A stretch of DNA of 64,000 bases, taken from Escherichia coli. GTDB lineage: Bacteria; Pseudomonadota; Gammaproteobacteria; Enterobacterales; Enterobacteriaceae. The stretch lies in NCBI RefSeq assembly GCF_003334385.1, contig NZ_QOWN01000015.1; one strand, 5' to 3'. The notes beneath the pieces were generated by a model. It had not been told where the DNA came from. It worked only from the letters and a program-made list of their open reading frames with translations, and did not search any database. This document shows positions 16,823-16,938 of the stretch, in pieces (positions within the stretch are counted from its first letter, which is position 1; each line of letters begins with the position of its first letter). Position numbers and translations under genes: made by a program.

Positions 16823-16904
16823 AACAAAAAACCCATCAACCTTGAACCGAAATGGCGGGGTTGATGGGCTCCACAAAATGGGGACATCAAAGAAAAGCAG
16901 TGGC
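16823..16904 (-). ncRNA. rybB: Small regulatory RNA RybB (sigma-E regulon, represses OMP mRNAs)
   Basis: Reverse complement reads GCCACTGCTTTTCTTTGATGTCCCCATTTTGTGGAGCCCATCAACCCCGCCATTTCGGTTCAAGGTTGATGGGTTTTTTGTT, matching RybB as I recall it, including terminal hairpin and U-tract. Confidence 0.93.
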
Positions 16905-16910
16905 ACTAAT

Positions 16911-16938
16911 TAAGACTGATGCCCTGCGGAAAAGTTCT
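16911..16938 (-). promoter_or_regulatory. Sigma-E-type promoter of rybB
   Basis: On minus strand GAACTT, 16-nt spacer, TCTTA, 6 nt, then RybB 5' end; fits sigma-E -35/-10 consensus. Confidence 0.75.

Follow-up and report, generated by a model that had tools for sequence, protein, structure and literature searches.

RybB has a central part in the envelope stress response, and both its gene and its action have been described. In Salmonella, deletion of rpoE brings rybB promoter activity down to background, and the published sigma-E motifs are GGAACTTTT for the -35 element and GTCAAA for the -10 element (PMC1804206). The same work reports an apparent Kd of ~100 nM for Hfq and RybB, Hfq-dependent stability of the RNA (half-life of 8 min, versus <1 min in an hfq deletion), lower levels of many omp mRNAs within 1 min of RybB induction, and higher sigma-E activity upon deletion of rybB. 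It places the gene in the ybjK(rcdA)-ybjL spacer, downstream of ybjL, in both E. coli and Salmonella (PMC1804206). In E. coli, a tiling array showed induction of RybB when sigma-E was overexpressed, the rybB promoter is among the strongest of the sigma-E regulon, and RybB and MicA jointly target 31 mRNAs (PMC4102768). Across 27 E. coli and Shigella genomes RybB was classed as a core, hub sRNA (PMC3318445). The seed region, the 5′ segment that recognizes targets, is treated in PMC1804206 and in Papenfort 2010, as cited in PMC4102768.

The DNA analyzed here, a stretch of 64,000 nucleotides referred to as the window, is colinear with E. coli K-12 MG1655 (NC_000913.3 871,154-935,153), with 16 substitutions and 0 indels. 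Three substitutions fall in the 6 kb matching MG1655 885000-891000, and none falls within 16700-17100. The features discussed below are as follows (window coordinates, strand, description and basis).

16826..16904, minus: rybB gene for the 79-nt RybB sRNA (identity to curated b4417 and RF00110 match)
16889..16904, minus: 5′ target-recognition (seed) region GCCACUGCUUUUCUUU (conservation and duplex prediction)
16832..16868, minus: terminator hairpin (MFE fold, Rfam structure line and compensatory changes)
16826..16831, minus: U6 tail of the intrinsic terminator (read directly as TTTTTT)
16911..16916, minus: -10 element GTCTTA, -12 to -7 (conservation and published motif)
16932..16937, minus: -35 element GAACTT, -33 to -28 (single motif match, conservation and published motif)
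16949..16958, minus: A/T tract AAATTTTTTT, -54 to -45 (moderate conservation)
16823..16836, minus: 14-nt core ATGGGTTTTTTGTT of a P2-like (Felsduovirus) attachment site (repeat at a prophage junction)
16981..18666, minus: ybjL, upstream neighbor on the same strand (context)
16270..16806, plus: rcdA, convergent downstream neighbor (context)

The site is almost certainly rybB, with its sigma-E promoter and its terminator intact, on a chromosome of the E. coli K-12 type. The whole window was searched with Rfam 15 at gathering thresholds, which placed RybB (RF00110) at 16823..16901 on the minus strand. The match reached 105.3 bits (2.6 times the gathering score of 40), with E = 1.3e-20, and covered the model end to end (positions 1-79 of 79). 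The curated ncRNA rybB (b4417, “small regulatory RNA RybB”, 79 nt) at NC_000913.3 887979..888057 (minus strand) corresponds exactly to window 16826..16904, and all 79 nucleotides are identical in the window and MG1655. The RNA therefore begins with a G at 16904 (+1) and ends in the U-run at 16826. The first-pass annotation, made by reading the raw sequence, had placed an sRNA gene of 82 nt on the minus strand of the rcdA-ybjL spacer, and had named an Rfam covariance-model search as the check. Gene, strand and spacer are borne out by the full-length match and by the positions of rcdA and ybjL, and only the length requires correction, because the GUU past the U-run had been counted, up to the end of the Rfam model at 16823. 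Its description of a known element is likewise accurate: rybB is already annotated and experimentally characterized. That it was the only identifiable trans-acting sRNA of the window agrees with the curated MG1655 annotation, where rybB and the tRNA gene serW are the sole RNA genes of the same 64 kb.

A 401-nt query around rybB matches many E. coli chromosomes at 100% identity (K-12 MG1655 and C600, for example), and 5,423 of the 5,426 complete E. coli genomes have the locus. Note that, under the 401-nt match, rybB is listed only in the curated NC_000913.3 record and in none of the PGAP-annotated RefSeq genomes, so that the spacer appears empty in automatic annotation. This is an annotation gap and not an absence of the gene.

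For the comparative sample, one genome per bacterial species was scanned with an exact 20-mer from inside the RNA. At least 120 loci were recovered, and these yielded 116 distinct sequences that were anchored, gap-free, on the RNA 5′ end. Genera among the matches listed include Escherichia, Salmonella, Citrobacter, Enterobacter, Klebsiella, Serratia, Yersinia, Sodalis, Proteus, Providencia, Xenorhabdus and others. RNA positions 4-23 are invariant by construction, as they are the search pattern, and divergent homologues are not represented. Positions 1-3 and 24-26, which lie outside the pattern, are 97-100% conserved in the 116 loci among the matches listed. Throughout these Enterobacterales loci, promoter, seed and terminator are conserved as one unit.

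Reading along the minus strand, GAACTT (16937..16932) is followed by a 16-nt spacer, TCTTA (16915..16911), six bases, and then GCCACTGCTTTTCTTTGATGTCCCC... from 16904. This is the layout of a sigma-E promoter, for which GGAACTT at -35, a GTCAAA-like -10 box, a 16-nt spacer and a start some 6-7 nt past the -10 box are expected; the window has aGAACTT-N16-TCTTA and a gap of 6 nt before the +1 G, and both boxes match the published sigma-E motifs. The first-pass annotation had proposed GAACTT-N16-TCTTA, and the annotated 5′ G indeed lies at the +1 expected from this promoter (16937..16911); the conserved -10 block, GTCnnA (16916..16911), is one base longer than the TCTTA it gave. Within the 64 kb, GAACTT-N15-17-TCTNA has a single match. 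For this bare motif 0.22 matches are expected per window, and 22 of 100 shuffles had at least one; by itself it should be considered weak evidence, as it would arise by chance in about one of five windows this size. The promoter is convincing because it is conserved and also stands in exact register with the 5′ end of the RNA.

Among the matches listed, the position of GAACTT is identical in 114 of the 116 distinct loci, with 1.9-2.0 bits per column, and the columns flanking the -35 element, the spacer and the region upstream of the -35 element each hold <0.7 bits per column. GTC (-12 to -10) and A (-7) are invariant (116/116), as are T at -1 and G at +1; the middle bases of the -10 element vary (AT in 51 loci, TT in 29, TG in 24, others in the rest). 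In these 116 loci, which range from Escherichia to Yersinia, Serratia, Proteus and Xenorhabdus, the spacer always has one length, and its sequence is under no constraint. A generic promoter scan of 16600-17200 returned no sigma-70-like promoter, which does not count against rybB, because its promoter is of the sigma-E type and not of the sigma-70 type.

Further upstream, the A/T tract AAATTTTTTT holds 0.5-1.4 bits per column, with <0.45 in the adjoining columns (116 loci among the matches listed), and is possibly an UP-like element. A report from 2025 states that NsrR represses rybB; the tract was checked for an NsrR site, and no support for such a site was obtained.

The MFE fold of the 79-nt RNA (-25.2 kcal/mol, versus -16.5 ± 2.5 for shuffled sequences; z = -3.5) has a mostly open 5′ region, a long 3′ hairpin and then U6. 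The terminator stem consists of 10 G+C-rich base pairs (16868..16859 with 16841..16832) that enclose a 17-nt interior with a 3-bp apical stem. Together with U6 at 16831..16826, it is the intrinsic terminator that had been recognized from the raw sequence. Compensatory changes occur at five stem pairs in the 65 distinct RNA sequences among the matches listed (AU/GC, 35:30; UA/AU, 36:21; CG/UA, 35:25; AU/GC, 38:26; CG/UA, 39:26). Few cells of the hairpin alignment are unpaired in these 65 sequences, and RNA lengths cluster at 79-80 nt. The hairpin is followed by at least four T in 65 of 65 variants, and nearly always by six. The U6 tail would provide the Hfq-binding 3′ end, given the role of Hfq established in PMC1804206. 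A generic terminator scan of 16600-17200 gave no match and thus passed over the rybB hairpin also, most likely because the 17-nt interior exceeds the 8-nt loop limit of the scan.

The single-stranded 5′ end of RF00110, GCCACUGCUUUUCUUUGAUGUCCCC, is present at 16904..16880 (minus strand), is identical to that of b4417, and is largely unpaired in the MFE fold. Duplexes were predicted between the first 25 nt of the window RybB and positions -100 to +60 of MG1655 ompC and ompW. With ompC, the 5′-terminal GCCACUGC is predicted to pair with GCAGUGGC in the 5′ UTR (duplex at -64 to -40, -24.4 kcal/mol), a value equalled by 1 of 500 shuffled seeds. With ompW, GCCACUG of RybB is predicted to pair with CAGUGGC early in the coding region (duplex at -5 to +21, -22.3 kcal/mol; equalled by 12 of 500 shuffled seeds). 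Each of these in silico duplexes contains a contiguous helix of 7-8 bp made by the RybB 5′ end.

The locus very probably works as follows. RNA polymerase carrying the envelope-stress factor sigma-E (RpoE) would recognize the GAACTT/GTCTTA promoter and start at the G at 16904, and the hairpin and U6 terminator would end transcription to give the 79-nt RNA. RybB would then bind Hfq, as described in the literature, and its single-stranded 5′ end (GCCACUGC...) would base-pair with many outer-membrane-protein mRNAs, such as those of ompC and ompW. Pairing is expected to block omp translation and to accelerate mRNA decay, the latter step being taken from published work. Fewer unfolded porins would result and, by the feedback reported in the literature, sigma-E activity would be reduced. 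The present analysis establishes which gene this is, the promoter motif with its conservation, the terminator structure with its covariation, and the complementarity of the seed to two targets; dependence on sigma-E, binding to Hfq, decay of the targets and the feedback loop come from published work.

The 14-nt core ATGGGTTTTTTGTT forms the last 14 nt of rybB and is unoccupied in the window. Approximately 1,200 of the 5,426 complete E. coli genomes have no contiguous match to the 401-nt query. In six such genomes among the matches listed, similarity ends at window position 16823 or ~16810, just past the rybB terminator. Both of the two genomes inspected carry P2-type prophage genes beside rybB (ogr, gpD and tail genes), with an integrase in one. 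A tandem double lysogen has a further copy of the core where integrase and ogr meet. The attachment core was recorded for the window, for L123 (7260-7360) and for L125 (10230-10260). This repetition of the core at the junction indicates that the phage uses the 3′ end of rybB as its integration target and leaves the gene restored. Insertion of P2-like prophages at this site, seen in many E. coli genomes, has been published as a Felsduovirus and defence-island hotspot, #29 (PMC10121019).

Two prophage arrangements were seen at rybB. Strain FDAARGOS_1248 (L125; NZ_CP069542.1 3566000-3586000) carries two tandem P2-like prophages, the second ogr/gpD/tail module lying directly after the integrase. 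APEC O78 (L124 10216-11564; NC_020163.1) carries a degraded P2-like prophage in which genes for a TIR-domain protein and an adjoining hypothetical protein lie between truncated tail and portal genes; this pair may be anti-phage defence cargo.

On the upstream side, a ybjL homologue lies immediately next to rybB, on the same strand, in 84 of the 101 loci with enough flanking sequence among the matches listed. On the downstream side, rcdA is adjacent in only 16 of 104 other-species loci, and 8 of the 104 have an ogr-like phage end there (matches listed); this variable neighbor is consistent with an insertion hotspot. There are 17 loci in Proteus, Providencia, Xenorhabdus and relatives (L026, L040, L041, L045, L053, L072 and 11 further loci) where rybB does not lie beside ybjL; promoter and seed are kept there, and the interior of the terminator hairpin is remodelled.

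RybB could in principle be a processed 3′ end of the ybjL mRNA, formed by read-through of the 76-nt spacer to the same terminator, with no promoter of its own. The arrangement is suggestive, as ybjL is on the rybB strand with its stop just 44 nt upstream of the -35 element, neither sequence reading nor the terminator scan detected a terminator-like site between the two, and the linkage is kept in the 84 of 101 loci counted above. Against this stand the -35 and -10 boxes, which keep a fixed distance from the RNA 5′ end as the spacer drifts, the signature of a functional promoter. The 17 loci that have promoter and RNA with no ybjL upstream argue in the same direction, as do the published promoter fusions, which are strictly sigma-E dependent (PMC1804206). 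We consider an origin by processing alone very improbable. Since no ybjL-rybB terminator was seen and the linkage is conserved, ybjL read-through that ends at the rybB terminator is plausible as an additional transcript, beside RybB from its own sigma-E promoter. The A/T tract and the lack of a terminator between ybjL and rybB also leave a slight chance of an extra layer of control, whether through an UP element, a site for an unnamed regulator, or ybjL read-through with RybB as 3′ UTR. If true, this would refine a well-known system and nothing more.

A small protein is encoded here with only negligible probability. Three ORFs do stand in the mechanical ORF list (a 43-aa ORF at 16759..16890 on the minus strand, and 16852..16989 and 16919..17053 on the plus strand). 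The minus-strand ORF, however, begins at a TTG inside the RNA and runs through the terminator into sequence antisense to rcdA, so that the 79-nt transcript has no stop codon for it. Indels of 1-2 nt in the hairpin interior of homologues, and unrelated downstream flanks, mean that homologues do not keep the reading frame, and conservation follows the pairing of an RNA stem, with compensatory changes, rather than a codon period. It is equally far-fetched, and already refuted by the evidence at hand, that promoter motif and hairpin resemble an sRNA gene by chance or without function (a ybjL terminator only, or a phage attachment site only): the bare motif is indeed expected 0.22 times per window and the hairpin and U-run do overlap the attachment core, but the covariance-model match (E = 1.3e-20), the conservation of promoter, seed and terminator across Enterobacterales, the curated annotation and the published experiments on rybB (PMC1804206, PMC4102768) all speak against it, and a role as attachment site or shared terminator would supplement the sRNA function, not replace it. 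No evidence against the rybB identity was found in this analysis.

Other RNA-like matches were recorded elsewhere in the window. Rfam places naRNA4 at 29599-29679 (plus strand, 75.5 bits) and ES036 at 28577-28619 (plus strand, 42.2 bits), flanking artJ; the curated MG1655 record has no RNA gene annotated at either. At 54600-54627 (plus strand), between clpA and the tRNA-Ser gene serW (54731-54818, minus strand), there is one perfect copy of a type I-F CRISPR repeat (Rfam CRISPR-DR4, 50.1 bits). No second copy was present in the window, even with 3 mismatches allowed, and the repeat has the look of an orphan left over from a CRISPR array.

Reading of the raw sequence placed the sRNA, a promoter for an alternative sigma factor and the terminator within 3 nt, and the locus can serve as a positive control for the scan; the window adds nothing new on RybB itself. 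Of the related systems, MicV and VrrA of Vibrio cholerae depend on sigma-E and repress porins, as RybB does, and their class of sRNAs has been described as having a conserved domain for seed pairing (PMC6694218, PMC2628432); they differ in belonging to other RNA families and another bacterial order. MicA and MicL of E. coli share with RybB sigma-E promoters, Hfq dependence and the repression of abundant outer-membrane proteins (PMC4102768, PMC1804206). They differ from it in sequence, locus and target set (ompA and others for MicA, lpp for MicL), and MicL transcription begins inside the coding sequence of cutC, in contrast to the free-standing, intergenic rybB. RybB as described by RF00110 and K-12 b4417 has the same sequence, flanking genes, promoter and terminator as the window, and no difference between them was found.
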